IMG/VR virus record: IMGVR_UViG_3300002219_000864
Coordinates: 58,959 to 78,958 of that record
Length of the DNA stretch: 20,000 nucleotides
Origin: an uncultured virus (IMG/VR IMGVR_UViG_3300002219_000864)
Lineage: Duplodnaviria > Heunggongvirae > Uroviricota > Caudoviricetes
Direction: 5' to 3' (one strand)
Shown here: in pieces, positions 1 through 15,667 of the stretch
How the letters are laid out: each line of letters opens with the position of its first letter
Position numbering within the stretch: position 1 is the stretch's first letter
Program-made: the position numbers and the translations under genes
The notes under the pieces: generated by a model
Databases searched by the model: none
The model's input: the letters and a program-made list of their open reading frames with translations, nothing else
Told to the model about the DNA's origin: nothing

Positions 1-1491
1 GACTGCAATCAGGATCCCGAAAAAGACGGCTGTTATCGATGCCTCTATGCCTACCGGAACAATTATGAACGAAACAACACTTCGCGGGATTCTGCCATCG
101 AGTTACTATCCGAGATTCTCAAATATCGTGATCGACTGGTCAAAACTGACTCTTTGAAAAACCTGTCAATAAACCCCCTTTTGGACAGTGAATTGGAGGA
201 GCGCTTCATTGAGGCACTTCGATCATTCCAAGCGCAGGATATCGAAATTACCCTGCGTAAGGAAGTCGTCAAGGGGAAACCCGGCTGGTACCTCAAAGTC
301 AATGATCGAGGTTATTTCATCGTTCCCCAAGTGGAACTGGGATTCGGGGAGGGAATTGTCGTTCCGTCGCGGGCAGATTTTATCTTTTATCCGGAATTGT
401 CCCGCGATGGTAAACCAGTTGTGGTTTTTACTGATGGGTTCATGTACCACGCCGGGAAAGGCAACCATAATCGCATCGGCAAGGACCTTGCCCAACGGAT
501 GGCCATTGCCCGAAGCGGTAAGTATGTCGTCTGGTCTCTTTCCTGGGACGACGTGGACAACAGTATCCATAAGAAGGACTGCCACTATGATAATTTTCTC
601 GGCGATGGGAATGAAAAAATCAATGGCTTCCATGCCCATTACGATGCCCAATTCAACGTCAAAAAATTGGGAGCAATACGATATCAAGCAAGTTTTGACA
701 TACTGATGACATATCTTGCCGATCCCAATTCTAACATGTGGCGGATGTATGCCCTCATCCACGGACTGGTTCATCTGGACTGTGTCTGTAAGGATGAGGT
801 GATTCGTTCTGCTACTGATGAACTGTGGGAAGATTTATCATGGCGCGATATCCAAGTGGGCATTAATCCCGACAAGTCAGGGTCTTCTTTTGTCGGGCTG
901 TACCAAAAAAACTGCGAGGATAACCCCTTAATAAAGCTGGTTGTCTACATTGGCAAGGATGATTATAGAGAAAATCGTTTCCATAGTATATCAGTTATTT
1001 GCCGTTTTTTTGATGACGACGATCTTGCGGACAAAACCTATTTCAAGGGGGCATGGAATGGTTTTATTAGGATGTACAACGTCTATCAATTTATCCCGGA
1101 CGCCGTTTTTATTACGACAAAAGGAATTTCCGAAGGTCAGTATCTATGGCTAATGGCCGACTCAGCCACGCAAAAAGATCAATCGTCCGAAGAATCCAAT
1201 GCACTGGTCACATTGCAAACCGTTACCGATGCACGCATTCATCCGCTCCTGTCTTTTCTCGTAACACACAACTTGCCGCTTCCCGAAGCGGGATTTGAAT
1301 TATGTGATGAAAAGGGTGAAATCATCGCAACCGCCGAACTCTCCTGGCCTGCCAAGAAGATCGCTTTTCTGAGAGAGAATGAACAGGGATACGAGCATGT
1401 CTTTACTGCTAATGGCTGGCGGTCTGCTGCGCTTAATACTGTGATTGCCAGTCCATCAATATGTATTTCCATCTTTAATGAGGAGAAATAA
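1..1491 (+). CDS. 5'-truncated large YprA/MrfA-like SF2 helicase: end of the DUF1998 Zn-binding domain plus C-terminal Vsr/DUF559-like endonuclease domain(s)
   Basis: The frame is open from base 1, upstream of the 154 start in the ORF track. DCNQDPEKDGCYRCLYAYRN matches the C...GCxxCL end of DUF1998. RADFIF...VVVFTDGFMYH...DLAQRMAIARSGKYVVWSLSWDDV resembles the Vsr/DUF559 pattern. The helicase motifs lie outside the window, so the helicase call is inferred from DUF1998. Confidence 0.8.
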   Translation, partial: DCNQDPEKDGCYRCLYAYRNNYERNNTSRDSAIELLSEILKYRDRLVKTDSLKNLSINPLLDSELEERFIEALRSFQAQDIEITLRKEVVKGKPGWYLKVNDRGYFIVPQVELGFGEGIVVPSRADFIFYPELSRDGKPVVVFTDGFMYHAGKGNHNRIGKDLAQRMAIARSGKYVVWSLSWDDVDNSIHKKDCHYDNFLGDGNEKINGFHAHYDAQFNVKKLGAIRYQASFDILMTYLADPNSNMWRMYALIHGLVHLDCVCKDEVIRSATDELWEDLSWRDIQVGINPDKSGSSFVGLYQKNCEDNPLIKLVVYIGKDDYRENRFHSISVICRFFDDDDLADKTYFKGAWNGFIRMYNVYQFIPDAVFITTKGISEGQYLWLMADSATQKDQSSEESNALVTLQTVTDARIHPLLSFLVTHNLPLPEAGFELCDEKGEIIATAELSWPAKKIAFLRENEQGYEHVFTANGWRSAALNTVIASPSICISIFNEEK

Positions 1492-3639
1492 ATGTTTACC
1501 ACACCGAAGCAAAAATTGATTGTCGCCATATCAAACGATTTTCTAAAATCTTTTTCGGGGATTCCCAAAAAAGAACAGGGTAAGGTCCGAGAGTTTTTTG
1601 AGAAATTCCGCGTGAACCCCGCATCGCCTGCCATTCAGTATGAGAAAATTCAGAAAGCAAAGGATGAAAACATTCGATCTGTCAGGATTGATCAGGATTA
1701 TCGAGGAATCATTTTAAAACCGTCCTCTGGAAACGTTTACATGCTCCTTTGGGTGGACCATCATGACAAAGCCTATGCCTGGGCAGAAAACCGACTTTTT
1801 TCTATTAACGCAGAGACGGGCGGCCTCCAGGTGATGAATATTGAAGAACAAAGCCTACCCGAAAAAGCGGCTCAATTGAAGGATTCAGGCTGGAATCTCT
1901 TCGATTCTTACAAAGATATGGACTTGATGCGGCTGGGCGTCCCCGAAATCCTTTTGCCGCTTGTGCGCCAACTTAAGTTAAAGGAAGATCTGGATGCATT
2001 TGAAAACCAATTGCCCCAGGAAGCCTATGAAGCCCTCTTTTTTTTGGCCGAAGGATTTTCCATGGAGGATGTCCTCAAGGATCTTGAAAAAGAACAAACA
2101 CCGCTACAAGTAGATACCGCTGATTTTGTTACAGCGCTTGAAAATCCAGACAGCAAGCGAAGGTTCCATGTTGTTGAAGGGGCTTTGGAACTGGCGGAAA
2201 TTTTGAATTCACCATTGGAGTTGTGGCGAATATTTCTCCATCCTTCTCAGAGAAGCATTGTAGAAAAGGAATATAATGGTCCCGTCCGTGTCCTTGGCGG
2301 AGCAGGGACCGGCAAAACAGTTGTTGCGATGCATAGAGCACGATGGTTAGCGGAAAAGGTATTCGTAAGGGAGAACGATCGCATATTGTTTACGACTTTC
2401 ACCAAGAATCTGGCGGCGGATATCAAAGAAAATCTCAGGAAGCTGTGTTCGTCCGATACCATGAAGAAAATCGATGTTATCAATCTAGATGCATGGGTGA
2501 TTCAGTTCCTGAAAAAACATGGCTATAGCTATACTTTGATTTTCCAGGACAATACTGGGGGGTACTGGCAGAACGCCCTAAATATGGCTCCGGCAGATAT
2601 GGATATAGACGAATCCTTTTATCCTCAGGAGTGGTCGCAGGTTATTCAAGCACAAGGAATAACGACTTCCGATGAATACCTGAAAGCTTCTCGGGTAGGA
2701 CGGCAGAGAAAATTGACCCGTCCCATGAAACAAAAAATATGGTCTGTATTTGAGGAATATCGGGCACAATTGAATGCAAAAGGCCTGAAGGAAATGACGG
2801 ATGCCGTGAGAGACGCCCGGATCATCTTACAAAACAAAGGTGATGTTTTGCCTTATCAAGCCATTATTGTGGATGAGGCCCAGGATATGGGCATGGAAGC
2901 CTTTAAGCTTATACGGCAAATGATACCCGAGTCGAGGGGGGAATCGAAAAATGAACTTTTCATTGTCGGGGATGCCCACCAGAGAATCTATCGGCACAAA
3001 GTTGTCTTGAGCCGCTGCGGTATCAATATCAGGGGGCGAAGCAAGAAACTTAAAATCAATTATCGCACAACGGAAGAAACTCGCAAATGGGCCACTAAGC
3101 TGTTGGAGGGTACAGCCGTTGACGATCTTGACGGCGGTGTGGACTCGCAAAAAGGTTACAAATCGCTGCTTCACGGTGATTCACCGGAGGTCCAATGCTT
3201 CAATTCCTTTACAGAGGAAATACAGTACATTGCTGCCTACCTGAATGAATTGGTCAAGGAGGGGGTTGATGTGAGTACGGTTTGTCTTGTGGCGAGAACA
3301 AATGATCTTATGAAGCAATACGAATCAGCCCTTCAGGAAAGGGGTGTCAAAACATATCTGGTCAAACGGAGCGTCGCCGAGGACCGAAAAACAGCTGGTT
3401 TGCGCCTGTCCACTATGCATCGCGTCAAGGGACTGGAGTTCGATCATGTGATCATTGCAAGCATCAATGATGGTGTGGTGCCATTGCAATCGTCTTCATT
3501 TTGGGATCCTTCTTCCGATCGGGCGGAAGAGAGCGAGAATTTAGAGAGAGCCCTGCTTTACGTTTCCGCGACACGGGCTAAGAAAAAGGTACTGATGACC
3601 AGTTATGGGGTAAAGAGCAGATTTTTAAACAATGGTTGA
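1492..3639 (+). CDS. UvrD/Rep-family SF1 helicase with an N-terminal RelE/ParE-like domain
   Basis: SF1 motifs: LHPSQ, GGAGTGKT (Walker A), TTFTKNLA, IVDEAQD (Walker B), VGDAHQRIY, INYRTT, STMHRVKGLEFD, LYVSATRAKK. The first ~100 aa (ISNDFLKSFSGIPKKEQGKV...IRSVRIDQDYRGII...LLWVDHHDKAY) are RelE-like. GAGGAG RBS; ATG directly follows the upstream TAA. Confidence 0.9.
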   Translation: MFTTPKQKLIVAISNDFLKSFSGIPKKEQGKVREFFEKFRVNPASPAIQYEKIQKAKDENIRSVRIDQDYRGIILKPSSGNVYMLLWVDHHDKAYAWAENRLFSINAETGGLQVMNIEEQSLPEKAAQLKDSGWNLFDSYKDMDLMRLGVPEILLPLVRQLKLKEDLDAFENQLPQEAYEALFFLAEGFSMEDVLKDLEKEQTPLQVDTADFVTALENPDSKRRFHVVEGALELAEILNSPLELWRIFLHPSQRSIVEKEYNGPVRVLGGAGTGKTVVAMHRARWLAEKVFVRENDRILFTTFTKNLAADIKENLRKLCSSDTMKKIDVINLDAWVIQFLKKHGYSYTLIFQDNTGGYWQNALNMAPADMDIDESFYPQEWSQVIQAQGITTSDEYLKASRVGRQRKLTRPMKQKIWSVFEEYRAQLNAKGLKEMTDAVRDARIILQNKGDVLPYQAIIVDEAQDMGMEAFKLIRQMIPESRGESKNELFIVGDAHQRIYRHKVVLSRCGINIRGRSKKLKINYRTTEETRKWATKLLEGTAVDDLDGGVDSQKGYKSLLHGDSPEVQCFNSFTEEIQYIAAYLNELVKEGVDVSTVCLVARTNDLMKQYESALQERGVKTYLVKRSVAEDRKTAGLRLSTMHRVKGLEFDHVIIASINDGVVPLQSSSFWDPSSDRAEESENLERALLYVSATRAKKKVLMTSYGVKSRFLNNG

Positions 3640-3700
3640 AACAGTGCTATGAAGCTTTTAGTGGACAACAAGTTTGATATCATATCCGATTATTGTGGAG

Positions 3701-3757
3701 AGAATACAAAGCAATCCATCCGACGTCTCACAGCCGCCGCTTATTTTTGTGTTAGAT
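3701..3757 (+). mobile_element. Degenerate integron attC-like site 1 (57 bp)
   Basis: AGAATAC-AAAGC-AATCCATC...GCTTATT-TTTGT-GTTAGAT has the 7-5-8...7-5-7 attC layout. The core site GTTAGAT is a perfect GTTRRRY. The inverse core has lost AAC (reads TAC) and the L boxes pair only partly. Confidence 0.65.
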
Positions 3758-4319
3758 GCAGATGAAAACAATCGCTGACATAGAGCATTACTTCCGCGAC
3801 CGAGCAAAGGAGCTGAAAGCGTTCTCACAAAATGGTACGCCATGGGAATTTCTCTGTATGGCCGCCTTCGTCGAATACTTATCCAAACTCGTGTATGGTC
3901 AAGATAATGGTGCTCTCGGATTCAAAAATTTCGTCATAGATTACTTGGCTAAAATCAATCCCCTGTATCAGAACTTCAAATATAAGAACGGCGAATCCGA
4001 CTTGAACAAACAGATGTATCATATATTGCGATGTGGCATTGTGCATTCGTTCTCACTTGTTCCTGACAAAAAAAGCATCAAGGAGGGTGGCCGGCTGCGG
4101 TCTATCGTTCTAGCCCACAAGAAATCTGGTCAATCCCATCTCAGCGCTTACTCTTCCTGCGATGCTCATGACGCCGCCATATTTATTTCAGAGGATTTTG
4201 CCTGCGATATTGAGCTCGTAGTTGACCACATATTCGGTGAAGCAAAGACTTGCCCCGCTTTGAGGCGCAATATTGAAACATGGTTAAGCACCCAACCTCC
4301 AATAACTGGAGGTATCTAA
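3756..4319 (+). CDS. Hypothetical cassette protein with HEPN-like RxxxxH motif (start may be 3762)
   Basis: 187-aa, apparently helical ORF containing MYHILRCGIVHSFS (R-x4-H). It starts at an attC core site and its stop lies inside the next inverse core site. Confidence 0.7.
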   Translation: MQMKTIADIEHYFRDRAKELKAFSQNGTPWEFLCMAAFVEYLSKLVYGQDNGALGFKNFVIDYLAKINPLYQNFKYKNGESDLNKQMYHILRCGIVHSFSLVPDKKSIKEGGRLRSIVLAHKKSGQSHLSAYSSCDAHDAAIFISEDFACDIELVVDHIFGEAKTCPALRRNIETWLSTQPPITGGI

Positions 4320-4372
4320 TGATGCTATGCGCGCCTCATCGCGCACCGCTCCAGTTGATGGCCATGTTATGT
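4314..4372 (+). mobile_element. Degenerate integron attC-like site 2 (59 bp)
   Basis: Begins ATCTAAT, which contains the TAA stop and is 6/7 complementary to GTTAGAT at the start of the same cassette. Ends GTTGATG-GCCAT-GTTATGT. L-box pairing is poor. Confidence 0.55.
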
Positions 4373-4395
4373 ACGTAAGGTGGAGTCCATAAACT

Positions 4396-5214
4396 ATGGA
4401 GCAGGAAAAAATTAGATTCGGTCTTTGTGATGAATGGGTAATTTTTCTGGAAAGGCACGGGAAGTTTGTAGAGAAACAAAAACGGCTCATTGATACTTTT
4501 CATAACATTTTTATAAGAGACGTGGAAACAAGCAACTCAGCCGATTGCGTTGTGTTTATGTTGGGTCGCCTCGCTGTCGAGGATTTCATGGAGATTCTTC
4601 TGCTCTGCGGGAATGGCTATGGCATAGGCGGTATGAAGCTTCTGCGGGGGCTCTATGAAAAAGCTGTTACTTTAGGCTACATTGCAAAAAATCCTGACAA
4701 GGCGGAGCAGTTTCTTGAATACTATTACGTTCATCAGGGCAAGCATTTCAATCATGCAAAGAAGGTATTTGCCATGGATGAGTTTTTGTCCTCTTCTCAA
4801 ATCGAGCAGATTGAAAGTGCCTACGAGAAAGCCAAACAGAAGTATCAAGAAGTGCTATGCAAGAAGTGCGGGACCACACGAACACGGATTTCATGGTCGG
4901 AGTTGGACCTTCTCTCAATGGCACGTAAAGCCGGTCTTGATAAATTGTACCTGCAATGCTATTACGATCCGACGCTTCAGGCACACACAACTTTTTCCTC
5001 GCTTGCATCTAAGTTGAAAGTTAAGGAAAACGGGCATGTAAGCTTTGATGAAAGCCCTCAGCACGATAGGGCGGACGTGGCACTGATAGGTGCGCATCAA
5101 GTAATCCTGCACGTACTCGACACCGAAAACGGCTATTTCAAAATGGGGCTTGAGAACGAAATACAGGAGCTATTTATGGACTTCATGTACGTTTGGAAAA
5201 AAGAGCTTGGATGA
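4396..5214 (+). CDS. DUF5677-like (HEPN-related helical) cassette protein
   Basis: ILLLCGNGYGIGGMKLLRGLYEKAVTLGYI and SWSELDLLSMARKAGLDKLYLQCYYDPTLQAH resemble the DUF5677 pattern (LxRxxxE ... Y...H). It has a CKKC insert and an AAGGTGGAG RBS. Confidence 0.7.
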   Translation: MEQEKIRFGLCDEWVIFLERHGKFVEKQKRLIDTFHNIFIRDVETSNSADCVVFMLGRLAVEDFMEILLLCGNGYGIGGMKLLRGLYEKAVTLGYIAKNPDKAEQFLEYYYVHQGKHFNHAKKVFAMDEFLSSSQIEQIESAYEKAKQKYQEVLCKKCGTTRTRISWSELDLLSMARKAGLDKLYLQCYYDPTLQAHTTFSSLASKLKVKENGHVSFDESPQHDRADVALIGAHQVILHVLDTENGYFKMGLENEIQELFMDFMYVWKKELG

Positions 5215-5274
5215 GCAGGCGCTGAACCCGATCATGGCCCTATCATACCACTCCGAGTTGGCTCTATGTTATAC
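5209..5274 (+). mobile_element. Degenerate integron attC-like site 3 (66 bp)
   Basis: GGATGAG-CAGGC-GCTGAACC...AGTTGGC-TCTAT-GTTATAC keeps exact attC spacing. The L boxes pair 5/7 after removing the extrahelical base. The inverse core is strongly decayed but still overlaps the stop codon. Confidence 0.6.
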
Positions 5275-5290
5275 ACGAGGGACTAAGAAA

Positions 5291-5875
5291 ATGCAATGTG
5301 ACAACGAAGCAAACGTTTATAAGCTACTTGGGGAGTTCTGCGTTCAATTCGAGCAGGTTTGCCGGTCGATGGAGGTTTGCATTCGCACAATCCTTGCCAA
5401 TCAGGGTTTGACCAATGAACGAGTTCACGAGATTCTTCTGGCTGACTATACCGCTGAACCCCTCCGCAAGTTGCTCCAGAGCCTTGTTGGGGAAGTGTTA
5501 GCCAAGGACTCTCAAGATGTCAAAATTTGCTCAAAGGTTTTCGGCAAACTTCAAGAGTTAACCAGCGAGCGAAACGACATTGTGCACTCCAAGTGGTTCA
5601 TTCTCGATGTGACAAATGACGTCGGAACCAAGAATTTCCTAGTCCTGGGTGAGAAGCTACATGCAAACAGGGAAGGAGCGGCTACAAAAAGGTTAAAACT
5701 CGATCGGGCCAGACTGGAGAAAAACATCGCGAAATGCAAAGAGGCCAGCATTTTGCTGAAGTTGCTCATGCGGTGTATTCTTGGGTTACGAAAGCTCAAT
5801 GAATGCTATAAATTAAACAAGGACGGGCTCACATGGAGCAAAGATGCTCTGAGACCCTTGAAACTGAACGTATAA
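5291..5875 (+). CDS. Hypothetical cassette protein with HEPN-like RNxxxH motif (194 aa)
   Basis: ATG at 5291 follows a GAGG RBS and an attC core site. Contains LGEFCVQFEQV near the N-terminus and LTSERNDIVHSKW (R-N-x3-H). Confidence 0.75.
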   Translation: MQCDNEANVYKLLGEFCVQFEQVCRSMEVCIRTILANQGLTNERVHEILLADYTAEPLRKLLQSLVGEVLAKDSQDVKICSKVFGKLQELTSERNDIVHSKWFILDVTNDVGTKNFLVLGEKLHANREGAATKRLKLDRARLEKNIAKCKEASILLKLLMRCILGLRKLNECYKLNKDGLTWSKDALRPLKLNV

Positions 5876-5938
5876 TAAGGCGCAGAAGCTGATCGACGCG
5901 AAGGGACGACCGCCGCCCTCGCTAAATCTGTTTTATAC
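5870..5938 (+). mobile_element. Degenerate integron attC-like site 4
   Basis: GTATAAT contains the stop and is 6/7 complementary to GTTATAC at this cassette's start. It is followed by AAGGC-GCAGAAGC-TGA, a typical attC left arm. The right arm is decayed (GCTAAATCTGT-TTTATAC), so the right boundary is uncertain. Confidence 0.55.
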
Positions 5939-6221
5939 TCTCTATCAACTGGCAATCTTCAGCAATTCATTATTCAAAATGTTAAGTGGAGTAGCAGAAA
6001 ATAAATAATCTAATATTTCACAAAAGATGTCTGAGGCATTCTACAATCGCTTGCTAAATAGGTAAATATGCAGAGGTCTTACTCATTAATTCCTAAAATC
6101 AATAAATGTCTTGTCGATCAGGGGCTGCAATTCAATAGCGAACCCCTTCGTGTCTCTGCACTGGCCACATGTCTTCGCACGTATGCACCCTACTTCCCCA
6201 GTTTCTGAAAGATAGCGTTAC

Positions 6222-6446
6222 TCACACCCTCTCCCCCTTCCTGGCCTTCACACCCGTCCACCGTCTCAACACAGATGGGAAAAACGCGATTCTCTTCTGA
6301 GGCGGCCGTCCCCGGCGTGTCTCAAACACCACCCCTGCTTCGATCAGTTCCTTTTTCATACTGCGCACCTTCCGCTCGCTGCAGCCCAGGCACCGGGCAA
6401 CGTTCGCCCACCCTGTTATGGCTTCCTCGATATCGTGTATGGTCAT
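6222..6446 (-). CDS. Small HTH DNA-binding protein (excisionase/late regulator-like, 74 aa)
   Basis: ITGWANVARCLGCSERKVRSMKKEL is HTH-like with a basic wing (RRGRPP). ATG at 6446 follows GGAGTGGAG, preferred over 6491. Confidence 0.6.
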   Translation of the reverse strand: MTIHDIEEAITGWANVARCLGCSERKVRSMKKELIEAGVVFETRRGRPPQKRIAFFPSVLRRWTGVKARKGERV

Positions 6447-6523
6447 GCTCCACTCCCTGGTACGGTTATTCTCCCAGGGGGCCATGAACATGACGCGCTG
6501 GTGTGTTTGCCTGGTGTTGCGAT

Positions 6524-6661
6524 TTACTTTACCGGGTTCTTGCCCTGCAGCATCGCTTCCAACAACCCGATCAGCATTCTGAGGATGCGGATGATCGACT
6601 TAAGAAACAGCCTCATCTCCAGTGTCAGCGTTATACGCTCTTCGCTGCGTTCCCGGTCCAT
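6524..6661 (-). CDS. Small hypothetical protein (45 aa, amphipathic helix)
   Basis: MDRERSEERITLTLEMRLFLKSIIRILRMLIGLLEAML; fills the gap between co-oriented neighbours without overlap. Confidence 0.45.
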   Translation of the reverse strand: MDRERSEERITLTLEMRLFLKSIIRILRMLIGLLEAMLQGKNPVK

Positions 6662-6666
6662 CGGCC

Positions 6667-6957
6667 CTACATCATCCTCCTGGGCTCCCGCGTGTCGAGG
6701 AATATCCGTCCGCTGTCCTGGTGGATCGTGTACGGGTAGTCGTGGTTGTAGAGCCACACCCGCCCATTACAGATGACGTTCGTCGCGTAGTCTTTCTCCA
6801 CTGTCTCGGGCACCGGTCCGTTCACCGCCAGTTCGAGCAGGAACTCAACGGTCTCCCGCTGCCCTTTGTTGCGGAGTGTGTACCGATACAGGGAGCCCTG
6901 TAATTCGGTTTTTAGTTTTTCCTTGTAGCGCTCGTCCATTCTTTTTATCTGTTCCAT
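6667..6957 (-). CDS. Hypothetical phage protein (96 aa)
   Basis: AGGAG RBS upstream of ATG 6957; co-oriented in the operon. Confidence 0.6.
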   Translation of the reverse strand: MEQIKRMDERYKEKLKTELQGSLYRYTLRNKGQRETVEFLLELAVNGPVPETVEKDYATNVICNGRVWLYNHDYPYTIHQDSGRIFLDTREPRRMM

Positions 6958-7002
6958 GCTATACTCCTGCTCCTGTAGAAAATATCGAAAATAGACTTCT
7001 TT

Positions 7003-7359
7003 TTACCGTAGCCGCTTCGATCCATTTGTCCTTCTTTTCGGGTTGGCTGCCCGGGCTTTCTGGAATGCCTCCATCTGTTTCTCTGTCTTGGGAGGTCTCT
7101 TCGGTTTCGGTGCCGGGTTCGTCCCATACGGGTTATAGGGATACAGCGGACATGTCATTTCTTCACAGTCTGTTGCCCGCTCATCGGAGTGATATCCCAT
7201 GCACCAGTAGCAGTGTGCCCGGACAGCTGCCAGTGCCGACGGTAATGCCTTTCCTGCCAGATGGTCAATGAGTTCCTGCCTGCCCTTGACGACCTTCCCT
7301 ATCCGCTTGATGTCGCTGAGTTCCTGCCTGGCCAGATCGTTGATCGGTTCGTATTTCAT
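7003..7359 (-). CDS. Hypothetical Cys-rich (putative Zn-binding) phage protein (118 aa)
   Basis: GGAGG RBS before ATG 7359; AVRAHCYWCMGY...DCEEMTCPLYPY four-Cys motif; basic tail. Confidence 0.7.
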   Translation of the reverse strand: MKYEPINDLARQELSDIKRIGKVVKGRQELIDHLAGKALPSALAAVRAHCYWCMGYHSDERATDCEEMTCPLYPYNPYGTNPAPKPKRPPKTEKQMEAFQKARAANPKRRTNGSKRLR

Positions 7360-7369
7360 TGCCTGCCTC

Positions 7370-7639
7370 CTATGCGGTGGTAATCTCATACTGCCATGGC
7401 GGCGGTGGCAGGAGGTCTTCACAAGGCACCTCCTCGTAGGCCCCGGACTCAAGGAGTTCGTCGATGGTGCCGCATCGACCCGAGGGCACCTGTTCGCCCT
7501 CCCTCCACAGGCAGTACTTCCCGTCATCTGTTTCCCTGAGCAGATGTACTTCCAGCCTCAGGCTTGCAAAATGACGCACCCAGGCTTTCAGGCTCTCGCG
7601 GTTTCTCTGGGGGTCGCTGAAGATGAATCCTTTTGTCAT
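7370..7639 (-). CDS. Hypothetical phage protein (89 aa)
   Basis: AAGGAG RBS; ATGA overlap with the upstream VRR-NUC stop. Confidence 0.6.
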   Translation of the reverse strand: MTKGFIFSDPQRNRESLKAWVRHFASLRLEVHLLRETDDGKYCLWREGEQVPSGRCGTIDELLESGAYEEVPCEDLLPPPPWQYEITTA

Positions 7640-7953
7640 GTTGTTCTCCTTTCCAGATCGTCCACCACGGATATGACGTCGTCGTAGCTTGCCACCACCC
7701 GATATATTCCGCCGTGCCCCTCGATGTCCGTCTTGAACTGCTCCTGCACCGGGGACAATGGAGCGCCCGGGCGCTTTGTCTCCAGGTACACGGTGATCCC
7801 GTCCTTGATTGCCGTCAGGTCAGACAACCCCTTGTGGCTCCCCATGCTCTGCTGGTGACGGATCACATACCATCCCCGCAGCCGCAAATAATTGCGCAAG
7901 GCAGCGAGGATGGCTGCTTCAGTAGTTTTGCCCTGTTTGTTAGAGCGGTACAT
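7636..7953 (-). CDS. VRR-NUC domain nuclease (putative Holliday junction resolvase)
   Basis: TEAAI...KGLSDL...VYLETKRPG...LSPVQ...GGIYRVV is the PD-(D/E)xK VRR-NUC pattern. ATG 7953 follows GAGGA. Confidence 0.85.
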   Translation of the reverse strand: MYRSNKQGKTTEAAILAALRNYLRLRGWYVIRHQQSMGSHKGLSDLTAIKDGITVYLETKRPGAPLSPVQEQFKTDIEGHGGIYRVVASYDDVISVVDDLERRTT

Positions 7954-8395
7954 CGTCCTCTTCGACCTCGGGGATGAAATCGTCATCGCCGAAGTTGTCC
8001 GGTTGTGACGGTGTGCCCTGGCGTTGATCTCGCTGCGGTTTCTGGCCGGATCCCGACCCTTTCCCAGCTTTAGACAGCATCTTCAGGTCATGCACGACCA
8101 GGGTGGTCTTCTTGTGTTTTATCCCGTCGCGTCCTTCATACTCGCTGAAATCGTAAGTTCCCACCGCATAGACGAGCATCCCCTTTTTCACCCATTCGCC
8201 GGTGATCTCGGCCAGCTTTCTCCATGCCTCGCAGTAGTGCCAGGTCGTTTTCTCCTGCTTTTGCCCTGCCTGGTCCTTCCATGTCTTCGTCGTGGCCACG
8301 GAGAAATTTGCCACCGGTGTCCCCGTGGCCGTGTACCGCACTTCAGGGTCCTTGCCGACCCGCCCGATGATTCGTGTCTCGTTGAGCATGTTCAT
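7940..8395 (-). CDS. ssb: Single-stranded DNA-binding protein
   Basis: IIGRVGKDPEVRYT...VANFSVAT...WKD...TTWH...VKKGMLVY OB fold; acidic tail EEDDVPL. Confidence 0.95.
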   Translation of the reverse strand: MNMLNETRIIGRVGKDPEVRYTATGTPVANFSVATTKTWKDQAGQKQEKTTWHYCEAWRKLAEITGEWVKKGMLVYAVGTYDFSEYEGRDGIKHKKTTLVVHDLKMLSKAGKGSGSGQKPQRDQRQGTPSQPDNFGDDDFIPEVEEDDVPL

Positions 8396-8406
8396 CTCCT
8401 ATCGTT

Positions 8407-10074
8407 TTATAGTTTTGCTAATTCCCCAAAATACGACCTCGCCCCGTCGTAATACAGGAACGTTTCGCCGCCCGCATGAAACCTCGACGCGTCAACCCTC
8501 ACCATCGTTTCCGGCATGAATGCCTCGGTGGCCTCGGTGTTTTTGGCTGTCTTCTTCCGGTGCAAAATGATCACATGGTCAGCGTCGGCACCGATAGATG
8601 CGCTGTCCTTGAGGTCCTCGATGCCTGCAACCGCGTTCCGCTCGATCTTCCGTGGTTGCGCGATGAGGATGAGCGGTATCTCCAGCTCTTCCGCGATCAG
8701 CTTCATGGTCCGGCTGATGTATGAAACTTCCTGTGTTTGGTGTTTAATGTCGCGGGCCAGGTAGTGCAGGTTGTCGAAGACGATTACCTCAATGCCGTAC
8801 CGCTTGTAAGCCTCCCGCATAGTATCGAACACAATATCCGGCGTGAGCTGCCTGCTGTTGTAACCCCAATACATGGGCCACTCTGCTATTCTTTGGTAGC
8901 CATCGAGCAGCACTTTTGGCGTTAATTCGTGATCCTCCCTTCTCATGACTTTCTTGATAGATTGTCTGAGCAACCGGGCGGGCCTCATTTCCAGGCAATA
9001 AAACAACACCGGGTGCCCGTTTTTCGCCCAATCCAACGCCATGTTCAGCGCGAACGTGGTTTTTCCTACCTTGGGCGGAGCCGACAACACCACGAGATCT
9101 CCCGGCTCGAAGGCACCGGTTAAGCGTTGAACATTCTCCCATGGCGGATAGAGGGCGGTATCGTCCATCTTCCTGTCGTACTCTTTTGTCAACTCCATAA
9201 ATGCCTGGAACGTGGTGCATACGTTGTCAATTCCATACTGTTCAGCGTCTTGCACGAGCTGCGCGAATTCTTCCATTGTGTGTCCATCAACAATAAACTG
9301 GTTTGCATCTTTCACCGGGAGCTTGAGCCGGTAACATCTGTCCAGGCCCAACCGCTTGGCCAGTTTCTTGCCTCCCGACTCTCCTTGCGCATCATTATCG
9401 TAGGCGATATAAACGGTTTTTACCTTGGCGAGCCGGTCGATCCACTCGGGCTGAATGGTTTCTGCTCCCCCGGTAACACCCACGGCAGTGTGGCCCATGG
9501 ATGCCAGGGTCATGGCGTCGATCTCACCCTCGGTGATGAATACGATTTCCTCGTCCTTCACACTTTTCAGCACATCCCCGTTGAAAAGCGCAGTCTTGCC
9601 GCCGGGCCACCGGGTAAATGTCTTCTCCGCAGGCGGTATGCTCCGGTATTTTATATTCACCGGCTGCCCGTCCTCGTAGATGGGGATACACAAAACCGGT
9701 TTGCCGTCCTTCTTGTCGCATCCCAACTTGAACTGCATGGCAACACGGGTGTCTATTTTTCTGGAGGCGAGATAGTCCAGCACGATCGTCCCGCTCGGCC
9801 CCATGAGTTTCTTCTGGCACTGGATGACATAGTCTTCCGTGGGATATTTGTATTTCTTTTCCGGCGGAGGCGTTATTCCCTCGGCTGCTCCGTATTCTTT
9901 CCGGAGCTTGGTCCACCCTCCTGCCTCGCCGCAATGATGACACTTAAAAAGGTTTGTCGTCTTATTCAGATACAGGTGCCCCAACTTGCCACAATACGGG
10001 CACTCCATCACCCATTCGGATCCTTCATCCTTCGCGGTTATGCCTATACTACTGAGAAATTCAATCGTTATCAT
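8407..10074 (-). CDS. Bifunctional primase-helicase (Zn finger + TOPRIM + DnaB-like SF4 helicase; T7 gp4/Twinkle-like)
   Basis: CPYC...CHHC Zn finger; TOPRIM ITEGEIDAMT and AYDND; helicase APPKVGKT, YCLEM, VFDNLHYL, IAQPRK, LKDSASIGADAD. Confidence 0.92.
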   Translation of the reverse strand: MITIEFLSSIGITAKDEGSEWVMECPYCGKLGHLYLNKTTNLFKCHHCGEAGGWTKLRKEYGAAEGITPPPEKKYKYPTEDYVIQCQKKLMGPSGTIVLDYLASRKIDTRVAMQFKLGCDKKDGKPVLCIPIYEDGQPVNIKYRSIPPAEKTFTRWPGGKTALFNGDVLKSVKDEEIVFITEGEIDAMTLASMGHTAVGVTGGAETIQPEWIDRLAKVKTVYIAYDNDAQGESGGKKLAKRLGLDRCYRLKLPVKDANQFIVDGHTMEEFAQLVQDAEQYGIDNVCTTFQAFMELTKEYDRKMDDTALYPPWENVQRLTGAFEPGDLVVLSAPPKVGKTTFALNMALDWAKNGHPVLFYCLEMRPARLLRQSIKKVMRREDHELTPKVLLDGYQRIAEWPMYWGYNSRQLTPDIVFDTMREAYKRYGIEVIVFDNLHYLARDIKHQTQEVSYISRTMKLIAEELEIPLILIAQPRKIERNAVAGIEDLKDSASIGADADHVIILHRKKTAKNTEATEAFMPETMVRVDASRFHAGGETFLYYDGARSYFGELAKL

Positions 10075-10867
10075 TTTTCATTCTCCCCGGGATAAACCCC
10101 GCTCTTCTCATTCTTTCATCTATTTGGTCTGCCTGTGGCTGGTCGTCTATAGTTGCTTCGTCCTCCCATAATCTTTTGTTGATCCATGTTGAGGCTCGCG
10201 GTATGTACCGCCCTCCTTCTTTTGTCCACTCCGGCCATGTCCGCTGGACCGTCAGCGCGGAAAGGATTATTTCCACGAGGCCGTTTTTCGGGTTAGCCTT
10301 TTTCCACGCTTCAATTGCGTCCTGCTTTCCTTTTTTCTTCGGGTAGGCCGCCCAAAATTTTTCAAAGGTACTGGCCAGAAGATTTTTGTCACTGCCGCCG
10401 TCAGATGTCACGGCTGACGTAATCAGAGAATCAGGAATCAGAGAATCAGGAATCAGAGAATCAGGCTTACATTTACTCCCATTGTATGGCTCTGTAATTA
10501 CATTGTCATGACATGCCATGACATCAGAATCATTGATGTTATCAGGGTCAGGAATTTTCGATGCCGCTTCATGAGGATGGGGGCGCTGGTGTTCCCTAAA
10601 TTTAATGACGGCAATAAAAGCGTCATTGCCGACACGATACCGTTGGATGAAATGACAATGACATAACTTGTCAAGTAATGTAATGACATTTGGTTTGGGT
10701 TCGTAATAGGGAAAAATGTGAGCTTTTATTCGTGCCGGCCTGTCTTCAAGTTTGCCGTCACGATCTGCGAGACACCACAATCCTGCAAAAAGCAGTTGCG
10801 CATACGGCCCCAATCCAGCCAAAATTTCATCATCAAAAAATCCTGGTTTGATATTTCTTGCTCTCAT
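10061..10867 (-). CDS. Phage replication initiator / replisome organiser
   Basis: N-terminus MRARNIKPGFF...LLFAGLWCLADRDG, a PDSLI repeat linker, and C-terminus FEKFWAAYPKKKGK...YIPRASTWINKRLWEDE, typical of phage initiators. Lies directly upstream of the helicase. Confidence 0.85.
   Translation of the reverse strand: MRARNIKPGFFDDEILAGLGPYAQLLFAGLWCLADRDGKLEDRPARIKAHIFPYYEPKPNVITLLDKLCHCHFIQRYRVGNDAFIAVIKFREHQRPHPHEAASKIPDPDNINDSDVMACHDNVITEPYNGSKCKPDSLIPDSLIPDSLITSAVTSDGGSDKNLLASTFEKFWAAYPKKKGKQDAIEAWKKANPKNGLVEIILSALTVQRTWPEWTKEGGRYIPRASTWINKRLWEDEATIDDQPQADQIDERMRRAGFIPGRMKNDND
10421..10465. repeat. Perfect 3 x 15-bp tandem repeat AATCAGAGAATCAGG inside the initiator gene
   Basis: Copies at 10421, 10436 and 10451; encodes PDSLI x3 on the minus strand. 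Confidence 0.95.
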
Positions 10868-10870
10868 AGC

Positions 10871-11083
10871 TTACCGCCCCGGCACCCCGTTGTACTGCCA
10901 TCTGTCGCAGACGTATGCGTCCTCGATGGCATAGCGGCTCGGCTCCTCGACGCCAATCTCCCTGCAGCGGTAGCCGTTGGGGGTCATAAGGGCCTTGTTC
11001 GCGCAATACTTGCAGCGCCTGCGAAGCCCGTTCTTCCCGATCATGGACCGCCGGTAGTTGAGTTCCTGCTTCTGCTTTATCAT
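10871..11083 (-). CDS. Small Cys-rich hypothetical protein (70 aa)
   Basis: GGAGG RBS; CKYC...C...VCD motif. Confidence 0.65.
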   Translation of the reverse strand: MIKQKQELNYRRSMIGKNGLRRRCKYCANKALMTPNGYRCREIGVEEPSRYAIEDAYVCDRWQYNGVPGR

Positions 11084-11095
11084 CGCTTCCTCCCG

Positions 11096-11245
11096 CTATG
11101 CGACCCTGATGTTCAGCACGTTCAGGGCGTTCACGTGGGTTTTGCGGAACAGGCGCCACGCCTCCCACACGGATGACGCCTCGATCACGTCGTTTTTCGG
11201 TTTGTGCTTTGCCTTGGACAGGTAGATGAAGAGGTACCGCGTCAT
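11096..11245 (-). CDS. Small hypothetical protein (49 aa, not in ORF track)
   Basis: MTRYLFIYLSKAKHKPKNDVIEASSVWEAWRLFRKTHVNALNVLNIRVA; GGAGG RBS and ATGA overlap with the upstream stop. Confidence 0.6.
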   Translation of the reverse strand: MTRYLFIYLSKAKHKPKNDVIEASSVWEAWRLFRKTHVNALNVLNIRVA

Positions 11246-11520
11246 GGGGCTGCCTCCTCCTTCTCACCGGTGAAGAGCTCTTCCTGGCCCTCCTGGACGT
11301 TTCGCCCGATGGCGTCCCTGACGCGGTCCGTAACAAACGATATCCCCGCGTCCACGTCTATCCCGCCATTCTCCGCCGGTCGCATGACGACGCGGATGTT
11401 CACGGAAAAAGCGCTGTCACCTGCATTCAGGTAGCCCTTGTCGATGTCGTCCTGATGCATGGTAAGTAATCCCTTAATGAGTTCGTTCGCCGTGTTCAAT
11501 ACGTGTTTCCCGACTATCAT
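11242..11520 (-). CDS. Hypothetical phage protein (92 aa)
   Basis: AAGGAG RBS; translationally coupled to the downstream ORF. Confidence 0.65.
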   Translation of the reverse strand: MIVGKHVLNTANELIKGLLTMHQDDIDKGYLNAGDSAFSVNIRVVMRPAENGGIDVDAGISFVTDRVRDAIGRNVQEGQEELFTGEKEEAAP

Positions 11521-11704
11521 GGTTGATCTCCTTTATCTGGTGTGTGTTTTTGATGTTGTTTTCGCTACCGCTGTTTTCCCGGTCGTGTATTCCGCTGCGT
11601 TCGTCCCCCCGGTTGTTCTGCGTGTCGTGTATGAATCTGCCGAGCCTGCATCCCACAATGTAGGCCAAGACAAACCACACGATTATAACCAGAAGTACCG
11701 TCAT
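11474..11704 (-). CDS. Small putative membrane protein (76 aa)
   Basis: N-terminal hydrophobic stretch MTVLLVIIVWFVLAYIVG followed by a polar tail; overlaps the next gene by 47 bp. Confidence 0.4.
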   Translation of the reverse strand: MTVLLVIIVWFVLAYIVGCRLGRFIHDTQNNRGDERSGIHDRENSGSENNIKNTHQIKEINHDSRETRIEHGERTH

Positions 11705-11844
11705 ACCTGTCTTATGTGCCTGGTCCCGTAATTGTCCTCGCCAGGCCGAGGTTGTGGAGGTTACCCGCACCGTTGCAGCGCGGCCCGCCCGGTAAGCGCA
11801 TTACCGGTGACGACATTCCGGGCGGGTATGAAAATGAAGACCTT

Positions 11845-13209
11845 TTACATCAGGGCTCCTTGATTCTCCTTCTGCGCTATCTTGTCCTTCATGGTCACCA
11901 TGTACCGGTCGAGGTCGGCCTCGTCCATGGCGTCGATGATCCGGTTGTCAAATTTCTTCTTCAAGTCCAGCTTCTCCTGGTTCGTGAGCTTTACCGCTTC
12001 CGCCCGTATGGCTTCCCGCTTCTGCTGCATTCGTGCAGCGTAGTGCGGGTCCGTCTTCTGGCGCTCCCGCATTTCCTCGTCCGGCGACTTCATGACCTTT
12101 TTGGCCTCATCGGCGTATTCCTGCACCACGTCGGCTGCTGTCTTTTTGAACGCGGGTTCCGGTAATTTGGACGCGGGTTCCGGTAACGATGGTAGTGGAC
12201 CGGACAGTGAGGGCTGGCCGCAGCCATTTCCCCTCCCCAGGGTTGCCGTTGCTATCCCTGCTCGTTTGACGATCTCCTGCTCCTGGTAGTAGAGGACCAG
12301 CGATGTCATGTCCACTGGTATGTCCAGATGGATCAGCCACTGCTCCCTGCGCGTTGCCTTCCCCGTCTTCGGGTCCACCACGGAGATGTCCCGGTAGACC
12401 TTCTGGAGGATGAAGAGCGGCTTCTTCTCATAGAAGAGCCGGGCGAGCTGGCCTTTCGTGACCCCCGCAACAAACTCCAGGGTGCTCTTGATGTTCACCA
12501 GGGAGTACCAAGAGGTTGTCGGCAGCACCCAGACTCCGATGCCGGTTATGCCGGGTATGTAGAATGAGAGGGTGCCGCCGAACTTGCATTCACCCGACTG
12601 ATACTCCCGGCACGTGTCAGGGTCACACTGACGTTCCCCCCACTTTCTCCCGCCGAAGACCTTGCCCGCTTCTTCCATGGGGTACTGGCAGACGCGAACG
12701 GCATCTGCTTGATTGTTGACATAGACCTCCTTGAACTTCGACTTGAACCGTATCCCCGACTGGCCGAAGCACCGCAGGCTGTGGTCGATGATCTTCCACC
12801 ACTCGTTGACCGGGAACATGACAGGCAAGCGCCTGAGTTTGCCGTCCTCATCGGAGTACAACCGGTGGATCTCCTTCTCATGCGCCGGGTTGAGGCAGTC
12901 CCGGGGGCGGATGCTGAAGTAGTCCACATTGGCTGGTATGAGCTTTGACTTTCCCCTGCCGTCAACTCCTAAGGCTTTATCGATCTCGTCCCACGTGGCC
13001 CCCTCTTCGAGCATGGCCTCGTATCTGGCCTTGTCCTGATCGGTGCAGGTGCTCTTGGGCTTCATGATGCCGGGCCTGATGACGCCGCTTCTGGGCAGCC
13101 GGTACTCGGGGCCAAGCAGGGTCGAGATGGCGGCGATGTATTCCTCGTCGCCGTCCTCTAGGATCCTCGCGATGCTGGTCGTGTTGGTGCACTCTGGTGC
13201 TGCTTCCAT
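11845..13209 (-). CDS. Gp3-like / recombination directionality factor-like phage recombination protein
   Basis: LPRSGVIRPG...DYF...CDPDTCREYQSGECKFGGTLSFYIPGITGIGVWVLPTTSWYS resembles the phiC31 gp3-like family motif (CK...L...PG.GVW...T.SW). AGGAGG RBS. Confidence 0.65.
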   Translation of the reverse strand: MEAAPECTNTTSIARILEDGDEEYIAAISTLLGPEYRLPRSGVIRPGIMKPKSTCTDQDKARYEAMLEEGATWDEIDKALGVDGRGKSKLIPANVDYFSIRPRDCLNPAHEKEIHRLYSDEDGKLRRLPVMFPVNEWWKIIDHSLRCFGQSGIRFKSKFKEVYVNNQADAVRVCQYPMEEAGKVFGGRKWGERQCDPDTCREYQSGECKFGGTLSFYIPGITGIGVWVLPTTSWYSLVNIKSTLEFVAGVTKGQLARLFYEKKPLFILQKVYRDISVVDPKTGKATRREQWLIHLDIPVDMTSLVLYYQEQEIVKRAGIATATLGRGNGCGQPSLSGPLPSLPEPASKLPEPAFKKTAADVVQEYADEAKKVMKSPDEEMRERQKTDPHYAARMQQKREAIRAEAVKLTNQEKLDLKKKFDNRIIDAMDEADLDRYMVTMKDKIAQKENQGALM

Positions 13210-13220
13210 GGTAAACCTCC

Positions 13221-14765
13221 TTATGATTGTGGTGTCACTTCGATGCCGCCGTTCTCCAGCTTGATGACAGCGTCTGCCATGCTCGCAAGCTCAGCCGTCT
13301 GGGTGGTGCATTCTTTTTCCTGGGCTTCGTGGCCGTATTCCTTTTTTTGAAGGGGAAGTTCCCGCGGCCGCACGGTCAAGTTAGGTTTAAAATACACGGA
13401 ACACATACACTCACGGGCGCATGTTAATATTTCTTCAACCCATTGCCACTCGGGTTGACATTCAGGTTCGCCGGAGGTTTTACTCTGTCCGCCGATGATG
13501 ACCCAATCGAAAGGCATCGGTTTCTTTATAGAAATTCTTTCCTTTAGTGGTTCCATTGATAAGAAGATTAGGTTTTCACCCTTTTCTTTCAGTTGACGTG
13601 CTATGGGAACGCTTTCGTGGTATCTCTTGTCCGTATCGGCAGTCATGCCGAGCCATACGTTTTTGGGAAATGCGAAATCAAGATACCGTTTTGGGTTTTT
13701 TGTTAGAAAAGTAAAATACCATTGTGGTGCCGCTTCAATAGCCTGTATGACTTTGTCAATCCATATTACTGGCACCCAATCTCCAAAGAGATCGCCCATA
13801 GAGCTTACAAATACCATCCGGTCTTTCAATGGAGCATCGTTCTTGTATGTGCTTACTAATGGCATCAAAAGACGTTCAGGCCATAGTGCGGGTTCAAAGC
13901 CAAGGTCTTTATAAAATCTGTTGGCAATATCCCGAGCATAGCAGTAAGGGCATCCGTGTTCACATCCAGTAACAGGGTTCCAGGTTCTTCCTGCCCACTC
14001 GATCATTTCATTGGTCACATTAAACTGAGGAACTTTCATTTCCTTGGGTATTGGTTCACCGTTCAGACAGCTGGATACGAGTTCCGCAGTTGTTGACCAG
14101 TAGGTACCACCGCTGCACGGTATACCCTCATCAGCCCATTCAGATAGGGATACATATGTCTTGTGTTTTTCACTTTTTTGTGCTTCCTGCATTTCTTTTT
14201 TGGTTTCCTGTAATTCCCTGTATGCTTCACCGATCTTCTTCGTTCCGGTTTGTAATTCCTGTTTCATTTCTTCCGGGGCTTCTTTGATTAATACCTCGGC
14301 CTGTGCCAGTTTGCCTGTTGATACACCTGATTCTTTGGCAAGCTCGTGACGGGTGTTGTGAGAGGTTTTGTCATTCGTTGACAAAACCTCTTGCGGGTGT
14401 TTTTCTCCATAGTGCTTTCCCGCTTCGCGTTGTTTCTCCTTCCCCTTCCCGAGCAATAGGTCTTTCTTCTTCAAGACTAACTCTATCCTCTGAAAGTCGG
14501 TTAAGTTCCTTCTCCCAAGCTGGTTGTTGATGATCCACACCATGACCTCGTGCTCGGATTCAAATGCCCATTCATCAATTTCAAACTCGACGCCGAGGTT
14601 TTGACATATCTCATACCGGTTGTGGCCATCGACAATGGTTCCGTTCCAGACGATCAACCGCTCTCTGCACCCTTCCTCGTCGATGGACTGTTTGAGTATC
14701 CCGTATTCTTCTTTTGTTAATGGTGGAATTAATGCCCTGAATGACGGGTTGATTGTTACGTTCAT
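13221..14765 (-). CDS. ParB-like N-terminal domain + HTH fused to DUF5131 (Gp37/Gp68, radical SAM-like three-Cys) domain, 514 aa
   Basis: ParB-like: LIPPLTKEEYGILKQSI...IVDGHNRYEIC...NQLGRRNLT. HTH: TRHELAKESGVSTGKL. DUF5131: IEWAGRTWNPVTGCEHGCPYCYAR, FVSSMGDLF, FLTKNPKR, LSMEPL, DWVIIGGQS. ATG 14765 has a GGAGG RBS and an ATGA overlap. Confidence 0.85.
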   Translation of the reverse strand: MNVTINPSFRALIPPLTKEEYGILKQSIDEEGCRERLIVWNGTIVDGHNRYEICQNLGVEFEIDEWAFESEHEVMVWIINNQLGRRNLTDFQRIELVLKKKDLLLGKGKEKQREAGKHYGEKHPQEVLSTNDKTSHNTRHELAKESGVSTGKLAQAEVLIKEAPEEMKQELQTGTKKIGEAYRELQETKKEMQEAQKSEKHKTYVSLSEWADEGIPCSGGTYWSTTAELVSSCLNGEPIPKEMKVPQFNVTNEMIEWAGRTWNPVTGCEHGCPYCYARDIANRFYKDLGFEPALWPERLLMPLVSTYKNDAPLKDRMVFVSSMGDLFGDWVPVIWIDKVIQAIEAAPQWYFTFLTKNPKRYLDFAFPKNVWLGMTADTDKRYHESVPIARQLKEKGENLIFLSMEPLKERISIKKPMPFDWVIIGGQSKTSGEPECQPEWQWVEEILTCARECMCSVYFKPNLTVRPRELPLQKKEYGHEAQEKECTTQTAELASMADAVIKLENGGIEVTPQS

Positions 14766-15520: not shown

Positions 15521-15644
15521 TCACTTTTCCCCTCTTCGCTCCTTCAACCGCATCACACACGCAAGCATCCTCGACGGTACAGCGCCCGTTATTTTCCAGC
15601 CCGATGACCGTGGCCCAGGTGCCCGCCAATTCGACGCATGCCAT
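15513..15644 (-). pseudogene. 43-codon remnant paralogous to the Cys-rich ORF at 10871-11083
   Basis: IGLENNGRCTVEDACVCD aligns ungapped with IGVEEPSRYAIEDAYVCD (10/18 identical), but the N-terminal CxxC is missing. Confidence 0.5.
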
Positions 15645-15667
15645 GCTTTGCCGGGTTAGTGTTTTTC

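Follow-up and report, generated by a model that had tools for sequence, protein, structure and literature searches.

Organization of the locus

The 20,000-nucleotide stretch analyzed here (the window) forms the terminal part, from position 58,959 to the end, of an uncultured virus record of 78,958 bp (IMG/VR IMGVR_UViG_3300002219_000864), which its source classes as a provirus. Positions 3702-5895 of the window contain three co-directional single-gene cassettes on the + strand and four junctions that are relics of attC sites, and very probably this locus is a decayed integron cassette array without integrase, i.e. an array of the CALIN type (cluster of attC sites lacking integron-integrases). 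The gene of cassette 1, ORF1 (open reading frame 1; 3756-4319, start probably ATG 3762), codes for a protein of 187 aa, ORF2 in cassette 2 (4396-5214) for a DUF5677 protein of 272 aa (Pfam PF18928, 3.8e-22), and ORF3 in cassette 3 (5291-5875) for a HEPN-like protein of 194 aa that has homologues in intact cassettes. The UvrD-like gene upstream ends at 3639, 62 nt before the first element, in agreement with the ~60 bp given in an earlier interpretation of this stretch made from its letters alone (the sequence-only reading).

The consensus boxes of attC sites are the inverse core RYYYAAC and the core GTTRRRY. At our locus core-like heptamers are found at 3751-3757 (GTTAGAT), 4366-4372 (GTTATGT) and 5268-5274 (GTTATAC), and the three genes end in the stop-bearing heptamers ATCTAAT (4314-4320), GGATGAG (5209-5215) and GTATAAT (5870-5876), the stop codon occupying positions 4-6 of this putative inverse core in 3 of 3 ORFs. 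The core that opens a cassette and the inverse core that closes it are complementary at 6/7 positions for ORF1, 3/7 for ORF2 and 6/7 for ORF3. All of these letters, heptamers, stop positions and pairings had been pointed out in the sequence-only reading and are present as described. When the 45 ORFs of at least 100 aa in the record were screened for a GTT heptamer that lies no more than 45 nt from the start and is complementary to the stop heptamer at 6/7 positions or better, ORF1 alone was retrieved; the ORF caller used in this check began ORF3 at TTG 5150 and therefore missed the 6/7 pair of ORF3.

Junctions 1-3 each have a GTT core; the strict consensus of core and inverse core does not occur. 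The AAC of the inverse core is absent at all four junctions at the positions originally proposed and is found solely if junction 2 is read more widely (4290-4296). As the inverse-core AAC is absent at the junctions, we call the array decayed rather than working. In the folding test, a check proposed in the sequence-only reading, junction 2 alone surpassed shuffled sequence (z -2.58 and -3.05), whereas junctions 1, 3 and 4 fold no better than their shuffled counterparts (z between -0.04 and +0.85). Rfam models matched region 3000-7000 six times, all weakly, with no match near the gathering score and none of relevance, and a generic repeat search found no repeat family at the junctions.

Recognition of attC relics by models of known sites

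The integron-integrase family TIGR02249 was sought in 301 genomes of one bacterial class, with 111 above the cut-off (a tally including three unpublished genomes otherwise unused here). Fourteen arrays were fetched, canonical sites were picked with a simple scanner, and 35 aligned sites from 11 arrays adjoining an intI above the TIGR02249 cut-off were used to build a covariance model, R1. The RNAalifold consensus of these 35 sites exhibits compensatory changes in 8 of 13 pairs. In held-out arrays R1 detected six sites in L068 (17-29 bits) and four in L064 (18-43 bits), each of them on the strand expected, and nothing above 9.2 bits in L065. The alignment underlying R1 was also converted into a sequence-only hidden Markov model (HMM) of attC for nhmmer, and matrices for the two half-sites were made from these 35 sites, which are unrelated to those of the window.

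In the whole 79-kb record, searched on both strands with filters off, R1 yields two matches above 8.5 bits, and both flank ORF1, i.e. they correspond to junctions 1 and 2. With filters off, the maximum in 99 kb of loci harboring ORF1 homologues was 11 bits. On the + strand of the window the top three matches of the 5'-half matrix are located at junctions 1, 4 and 3, and those of the 3'-half matrix at junctions 1, 3 and 2; the 3'-half matrix, being ungapped, missed real attC sites with one extra spacer base and was trusted only for rank inside the window. Half-site scores of 7-10 bits arise ~5-13 times by chance in 79 kb.

Junction 1 (3702-3757, + strand) is a full-length, decayed attC relic that ends in the core GTTAGAT opening cassette 1. 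It scores 22.3 bits with R1 (E 0.002 in 40 kb) and 20.6 bits with nhmmer (E 3.4e-5 in 79 kb), as compared to 18.8 bits for the real attC behind an ORF3 homologue, and it is the best + strand match for both half-site matrices (14.5 and 18.3 bits). Its inverse core is one base short, 3 of the 14 pairs of the model are non-standard, and its fold does not exceed that of shuffled sequence (z +0.55).

Junction 2 (4290-4372) is an attC-like hairpin of ambiguous orientation, identified by its fold, by R1 and as inverted repeat I14. A stem of 13 bp (4299-4311 with 4349-4361), devoid of bulged bases, is topped by an inner GC hairpin, and the 5' arm of the stem also codes for the conserved C terminus of the ORF1 protein. 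With R1 the - strand scores 16.5 bits (E 0.057) and the + strand 2.8 bits, a gap of 13.7 bits; the 3'-half matrix matches 4352-4372 on the + strand with a score of 8.4. Of the element outlined earlier at 4314-4372, the attC-like site holds, whereas a clear + orientation and the narrower 5' limit at 4314 are not supported, the extent according to the model being 4290-4372.

Junctions 3 and 4 have intact relatives

Junction 3 (5209-5274, + strand) represents the attC of cassette 2 in a decayed form. Its terminal core, GTTATAC, opens cassette 3, and the stop codon TGA of ORF2 occupies its inverse-core position. Restricted to 3650-5990, R1 returns a weak + strand match of 5.3 bits with exactly the ends assigned in the sequence-only reading. 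The half-sites score 7.1 and 9.9 bits, and the fold is not above shuffles (z +0.79 and +0.44). Three further contigs contain a copy of positions 5217-5272 (~84% identity) that is surrounded by different sequence on both sides; the contigs compared stem from two runs of one study, one of which (X1) is perhaps the source sample of our record and is not independent. In these sister copies an intact inverse core lies directly 5' of the shared part, and on one of the contigs GTTCGGT (core) and ACCGAAC (inverse core) are fully complementary. The likeness to the sister copies stops inside the core, which is where cassettes join. Junction 3 is a member of a live site family that is common to unrelated cassettes. 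No contig joins across a cassette in the two metagenome runs.

Junction 4 (5870-5895, + strand) corresponds to the 5' half of the attC of cassette 3. Homologues of ORF3 (71% identity, 137 of 194 residues) occur in two metagenome loci, L031 and L032, and in both of them (2/2) the gene is directly followed by an intact attC (R1, 36.4 bits), the inverse core of which, GTATAAC, contains the stop codon. Together the two loci carry four intact attC sites of 27-49 bits, one behind each gene; the TIR-domain and AbiGi genes that neighbor the ORF3 homologues end in attC sites as well (49.4 and 27.3 bits, respectively). Junction 4 and the intact sites share 21 of 26 bases, an identity roughly equal to the 79% of the coding sequence, and beyond that point the likeness is random. 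On the other side of the gene, 16 of the 20 bases upstream of the ORF3 ATG are identical, again followed by random likeness, and homology sets in within the core GTTATAC, at its TATAC. The core GTTATAC is complementary to the intact inverse core GTATAAC at 7/7 positions, as expected for a once-circular cassette. In the window, the inverse core reads GTATAAT instead of GTATAAC.

The 5'-half matrix matches junction 4 with 9.1 bits; R1 finds no match there in its search of 3650-5990, and no fold is apparent (z -0.04). The 3' core formerly proposed for this element (GTTTTAT, ~5931-5937) was dropped, as neither the half-site matrices nor R1 supported it. The array is broken off inside junction 4, of which only the 5' half is recognizable. 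From the earlier picture of four elements, junctions 1-3 are thus retained, as is the 5' half of the fourth site, and a full fourth site with its 3' end is not. R1 reproduces the same picture unevenly, with its two best matches in 79 kb around ORF1, a weak one at junction 3 and none at junction 4. The proposed decay is confirmed, since three of four sites lack a fold and the intact relatives reveal the loss of AAC at junctions 3 and 4.

Might the array nevertheless be live, i.e. a working CALIN the cassettes of which are excised and moved in trans by an integron integrase encoded elsewhere on the host chromosome, beyond the 79 kb of the record? The hairpin of junction 2 is well formed (z -2.6 and -3.05), with both boxes near consensus if read at 4290-4372, junction 1 scores like genuine but divergent attC sites (L068, 17-29 bits), the sister copies of junction 3 in the same metagenome imply that a matching integron community exists, and the search for intI was limited to 79 kb of host DNA. 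However, junctions 1, 3 and 4 fold no better than shuffles and have lost the inverse-core AAC that their intact relatives kept, junction 4 is reduced to its 5' half, and no contig joining across a cassette was found in the two runs. We therefore regard a working array as very unlikely.

The ends of the array also bear on the way it arose. Integron cassettes can be inserted outside att sites and expressed from nearby promoters, as reported by Loot et al. (bioRxiv 10.1101/2022.09.11.507474), and the three genes are positioned directly behind an operon able to express them; hence the cassettes could have come singly, each inserted by an integrase at a non-canonical genomic site (attG-type). This origin is highly improbable, as junction 1 has both attC halves, which is unexpected from a single recombination of one attC with the genome, as three adjacent cassettes arranged core to inverse core fit an array, and as the right end is cut within an attC. 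With both halves at junction 1 and one half at junction 4 the fragment rather looks cut from an array.

The cassettes next to the ORF3 homologues (L031 702-2515; L032 28-606) code for a TIR/SEFIR-domain protein, a ParE-like toxin and an AbiGi-like protein, i.e. this array is rich in defence and toxin-antitoxin cargo. Moreover, in L032 a 61-aa ORF (693-878; no PHROG match) precedes the HEPN-like gene in the same intact cassette and is a possible partner or antitoxin of the HEPN-like protein. Its counterpart is missing in the window, where the gap between ORF2 and ORF3 is just 76 nt.

The cassette proteins and their homologues

ORF1 belongs to an uncharacterized family with 92 homologues, close ones of which (P0006-P0009) are 75-81% identical. 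A comparison of 73 members with Pfam gave no family match, just scattered weak ones. Among these 73 sequences R92, G94 and H97 are invariant, forming an R92-x4-H97 motif. The structure predicted with confidence for ORF1 (pLDDT 95.6) is a helical bundle without a clear fold match, and HEPN chains recur among its weak matches at Z 4.4-5.1, alongside DinB-like and other unrelated bundles; Foldseek against the PDB found nothing. In 29 loci with ORF1 homologues neither an ORF2 nor an ORF3 homologue lies beside the gene (0/29), and a UvrD match is present in one (1/29), 8 kb off and on the other strand. Since ORF1 homologues never adjoin homologues of ORF2 or ORF3 in these loci, the three genes do not travel together.

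Genes of the ORF1 family (L002-L030) are mostly solitary insertions, some of them among housekeeping genes, i.e. argG, tgt-yajC-secDF, ispDF, rpsP-rimM, rplJL and rho. Other loci are defence neighborhoods with GmrSD and a type I methylase, AbiE, RES, NACHT or DUF4145. Rows of same-strand genes around the homologues in L012, L014 and L015 were considered as arrays and discarded, as they contain neither repeated sites nor attC matches. In L024 (4465-10171) three tyrosine recombinases adjoin the homologue, together with a YhcG nuclease, a RES-domain gene and AbiEii; the recombinases are Xer- or invertase-like (76 bits vs the cut-off of 265) and do not qualify as IntI. One genome with an ORF1 homologue (G005) has a true intI, but on another contig, and was rejected as a link to integrons.

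The solitary occurrence of ORF1 homologues without attC would be in line with a locus that has no integron ancestry, in which case the helicase defence operon would simply include the three ORFs as accessory genes, and the motifs would have arisen by chance or be regulatory hairpins. The missing fold of three of the four junctions, the absence of the strict consensus pattern and the frequency with which half-site scores of 7-10 bits occur by chance point in the same direction, and initially we had read the junctions as 'not attC' on the basis of folds and consensus. This view was abandoned after the covariance model and the homologous cassettes had become available. Junction 1 is recognized by the sequence HMM with an E-value of 3.4e-5, the only two above-noise covariance matches in 79 kb coincide with predicted junctions, the non-coding resemblance between junction 4 and an intact attC has its limits exactly at cassette landmarks, copies of junction 3 occur elsewhere between other flanks, and the ORF families do not co-occur with UvrD. 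An origin without integrons has thus already been largely refuted and is barely credible.

For ORF2, 240 homologues were found, and close ones (P0103-P0109) are 79-85% identical. A search of the ESM Atlas retrieved DUF5677 clusters only, and the ORF2 protein itself had no match among 300 genomes from a single class or 401 genomes from a single phylum. A DUF5677 gene is carried by 17 of 300 genomes of the same class, one of which is unpublished and was set aside. Two of the 16 DUF5677 loci examined have an attC on the strand of the gene: in L079 the gene is located inside the array of a complete integron with intI, and in L090 the gene and the attC behind it overlap at the stop codon.

The ORF3 family comprises 402 representative clusters. 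E93, R94, N95 and H99 are invariant in six sequences, and among 116 distant relatives HEPN_RiboL-PSP is matched in six and HEPN_Cthe2314 in one, all below threshold. The structure prediction for ORF3 is weak (pLDDT 68.4) and gives a helical bundle, for which HEPN chains appear at Z 5.0-6.7 among unrelated bundles. Compared to its homologues ORF3 has a dN/dS of 0.30, i.e. it is under purifying selection. With their invariant Rx4H motifs both ORF1 and ORF3 look HEPN-like.

The ORF1, ORF2 and ORF3 families are not detectably related in profile-profile comparisons. A sequence search of solved structures gave nothing below E 0.1 for any of the three proteins, PADLOC no meaningful E-value, and scans of viral contigs no match for ORF1, ORF2 or the upstream helicase and one weak match of 32 residues for ORF3. 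In region 3400-6400 no terminator-like site was found (2.8 in shuffled sequence), and promoter-like sites are at chance level, which fits promoterless cassettes that are transcribed by read-through from the helicase operon.

The array between a defence island and a replication module

Upstream of the array a defence island of ~23 kb extends on the + strand (L033 706-19959 plus window 1-3639). It starts with genes for an SNF2/DrmD-like helicase (953 aa), a type IIG restriction-modification enzyme (1569 aa; PADLOC 4.4e-300), a TmtA-like protein (1834 aa; 3.2e-252), a protein of 355 aa (phrog_1221) and a DruE-like helicase (~2100 aa; 6.4e-100), the gene of which ends at window position 1491. The tail gene (1492-3639, + strand) encodes the UvrD/GajB-like helicase (Pfam UvrD-helicase 2.8e-26, UvrD_C 6.8e-25; PADLOC GajB 5.6e-36). 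As the last gene of the island it is the context of the array and not a cassette. An assignment of the helicase operon to plain Gabija was rejected: GajB is matched, but there is no match to GajA among the five proteins upstream of the GajB-like helicase, i.e. the OLD-family ATPase partner of Gabija is not seen, and the preceding gene is DruE-like.

Downstream, the - strand carries a phage-type replication module (SSB, primase-helicase, replication initiator, SbcCD-like proteins and a repressor-like gene). The G+C content amounts to 43-49% over the island and the three ORFs and to 51-58% from ~6000-6300 on. Directly past the broken fourth site, at 5900-6300, it rises from ~45% to ~55% and the coding strand switches, so that this region is a seam between the island with the array and the phage-like replication module.

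No intI was found with TIGR02249 (cut-off 265 bits) in the whole 78,958-bp record, which extends the earlier statement that the window is devoid of intI. TIGR02249 picks up Xer-type recombinases in all 14 control genomes, yet there are zero candidates in the 79-kb provirus record. A side observation concerns L073, which contains an open frame of 5173 aa on the - strand (1004-16525).

Discussion

Our interpretation builds on the demonstrated attC ancestry of the junctions, the cassette-borne homologues, the decay of the sites and the lack of intI in the record. The integron cassette ancestry put forward in the sequence-only reading is supported by R1, by nhmmer and by the homologous cassettes. 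The locus may be written as attC0 - ORF1 - attC1 - ORF2 - attC2 - ORF3 - half of attC3. In this model, the three genes would once have been separate, promoterless mobile cassettes that were assembled by an integron integrase somewhere else, and a fragment of the resulting array would now be fixed at the 3' border of the large defence island inside a prophage-like element. As the sites are devoid of the inverse-core AAC and the hairpin is lost in three of four, the cassettes are probably no longer excised or shuffled. The three genes themselves have stayed intact. Transcription most likely occurs via read-through from the helicase operon, and the three genes are most likely stand-alone anti-phage effectors, ORF1 and ORF3 possibly acting as HEPN-type RNases that stop growth on infection.

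Several observations weigh against this interpretation. Junction 2 scores better on the strand opposite to that of junctions 1 and 3, unlike the sites of a canonical array, which share one orientation. Junctions 3 and 4 are not significant by half-site score alone, and their half-site matches count only through the stop-codon register and the homologous copies elsewhere. R1 is home-made, was trained on one bacterial class, yields rough E-values and is not the model of IntegronFinder. The expectation that homologues of the three ORFs reside in cassettes holds for ORF3 (2/2 loci) and in part for DUF5677 (2/16) and fails for ORF1, the homologues of which (33-52% identity) are attC-flanked in 0 of 29 loci and not followed by a strict core pattern. 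Moreover, the attC-associated DUF5677 genes are distant relatives of ORF2, and the close homologues of ORF2 are not placed on DNA. As to function, the anti-phage role of the cassette genes is putative, and in the preprint PMC12632615 one DUF5677 ORF was tested and is not among the 5 of 9 ORFs that protected. A defence function of the cassette genes is, in our view, evenly balanced between being right and wrong.

A temperate phage or an integrative element may have taken up part of an integron array, which then became fixed behind the element's own helicase operon as defence cargo; the HEPN-like proteins could act as effectors of the DruE/UvrD helicases. We consider this scenario doubtful. If it were true, integron cassettes could leave the integron and travel by phage, and defence islands could grow by 'freezing' cassettes.

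As a decayed CALIN-type array the locus adds one more, well-hidden case to a kind of element that is already known, and does not represent a new kind. Even arrays too decayed for routine attC detection may still be recognized by the stop-codon register, the complementarity of core and inverse core, and intact sister cassettes, implying that integron-derived genes in genomes may be under-counted. The locus would provide a concrete case in which the defence island of a prophage-like element acquired cassettes as fixed cargo, and it nominates three small single-gene candidates for anti-phage systems, i.e. the ORF1 family, the ORF3 family and the DUF5677 protein.

HEPN RNases of abortive infection and toxin systems (RiboL-PSP-HEPN PF18735, AbiV, HEPN/MNT) resemble ORF1 and ORF3 in the invariant Rx4H motif, the helical bundles and the HEPN fold matches, and homologues of the cassette proteins, too, are surrounded by defence genes (TIR, AbiGi, ParE). 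In contrast to these RNases, ORF1 and ORF3 stay below every Pfam threshold, their fold matches (Z 6.7 at most) are within the range that is non-specific for helical bundles with this tool, and the two proteins are not detectably related to each other.

Small anti-phage systems, AbiV and a HEPN-like protein among them, are encoded by many cassettes of chromosomal integrons according to Darracq et al. (bioRxiv 10.1101/2024.07.02.601686), and homologues of these systems also occur outside integrons, e.g. in prophages. Our cassettes share with those of sedentary chromosomal integrons, as described there, the format of small single-gene systems, among which are AbiV and a protein that is HEPN-like only, and the existence of homologues outside integrons. 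They differ in that PADLOC finds no match with a meaningful E-value, that the cassettes are immobilized and that their defence role is putative.

From a complete integron the locus is distinguished by the lack of a TIGR02249 match (more than 265 bits needed) both adjoining the array and in the entire record. The closest counterpart is the CALIN, reportedly introduced as a class of IntegronFinder by Cury and colleagues in 2016. A definition of CALIN is also given by Darracq et al. (bioRxiv 10.1101/2024.07.02.601686). Co-directional single-gene cassettes, attC-derived separators, the absence of intI nearby and homologous cassettes in intact arrays are common to CALINs and our locus. Nevertheless, the sites described here are decayed to the point that only one or two of the four would pass an attC model, and automatic tools would probably report nothing or one isolated site. 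Finally, in contrast to a CALIN, our array is cut in its last site and fused to a defence operon in a prophage-like element.

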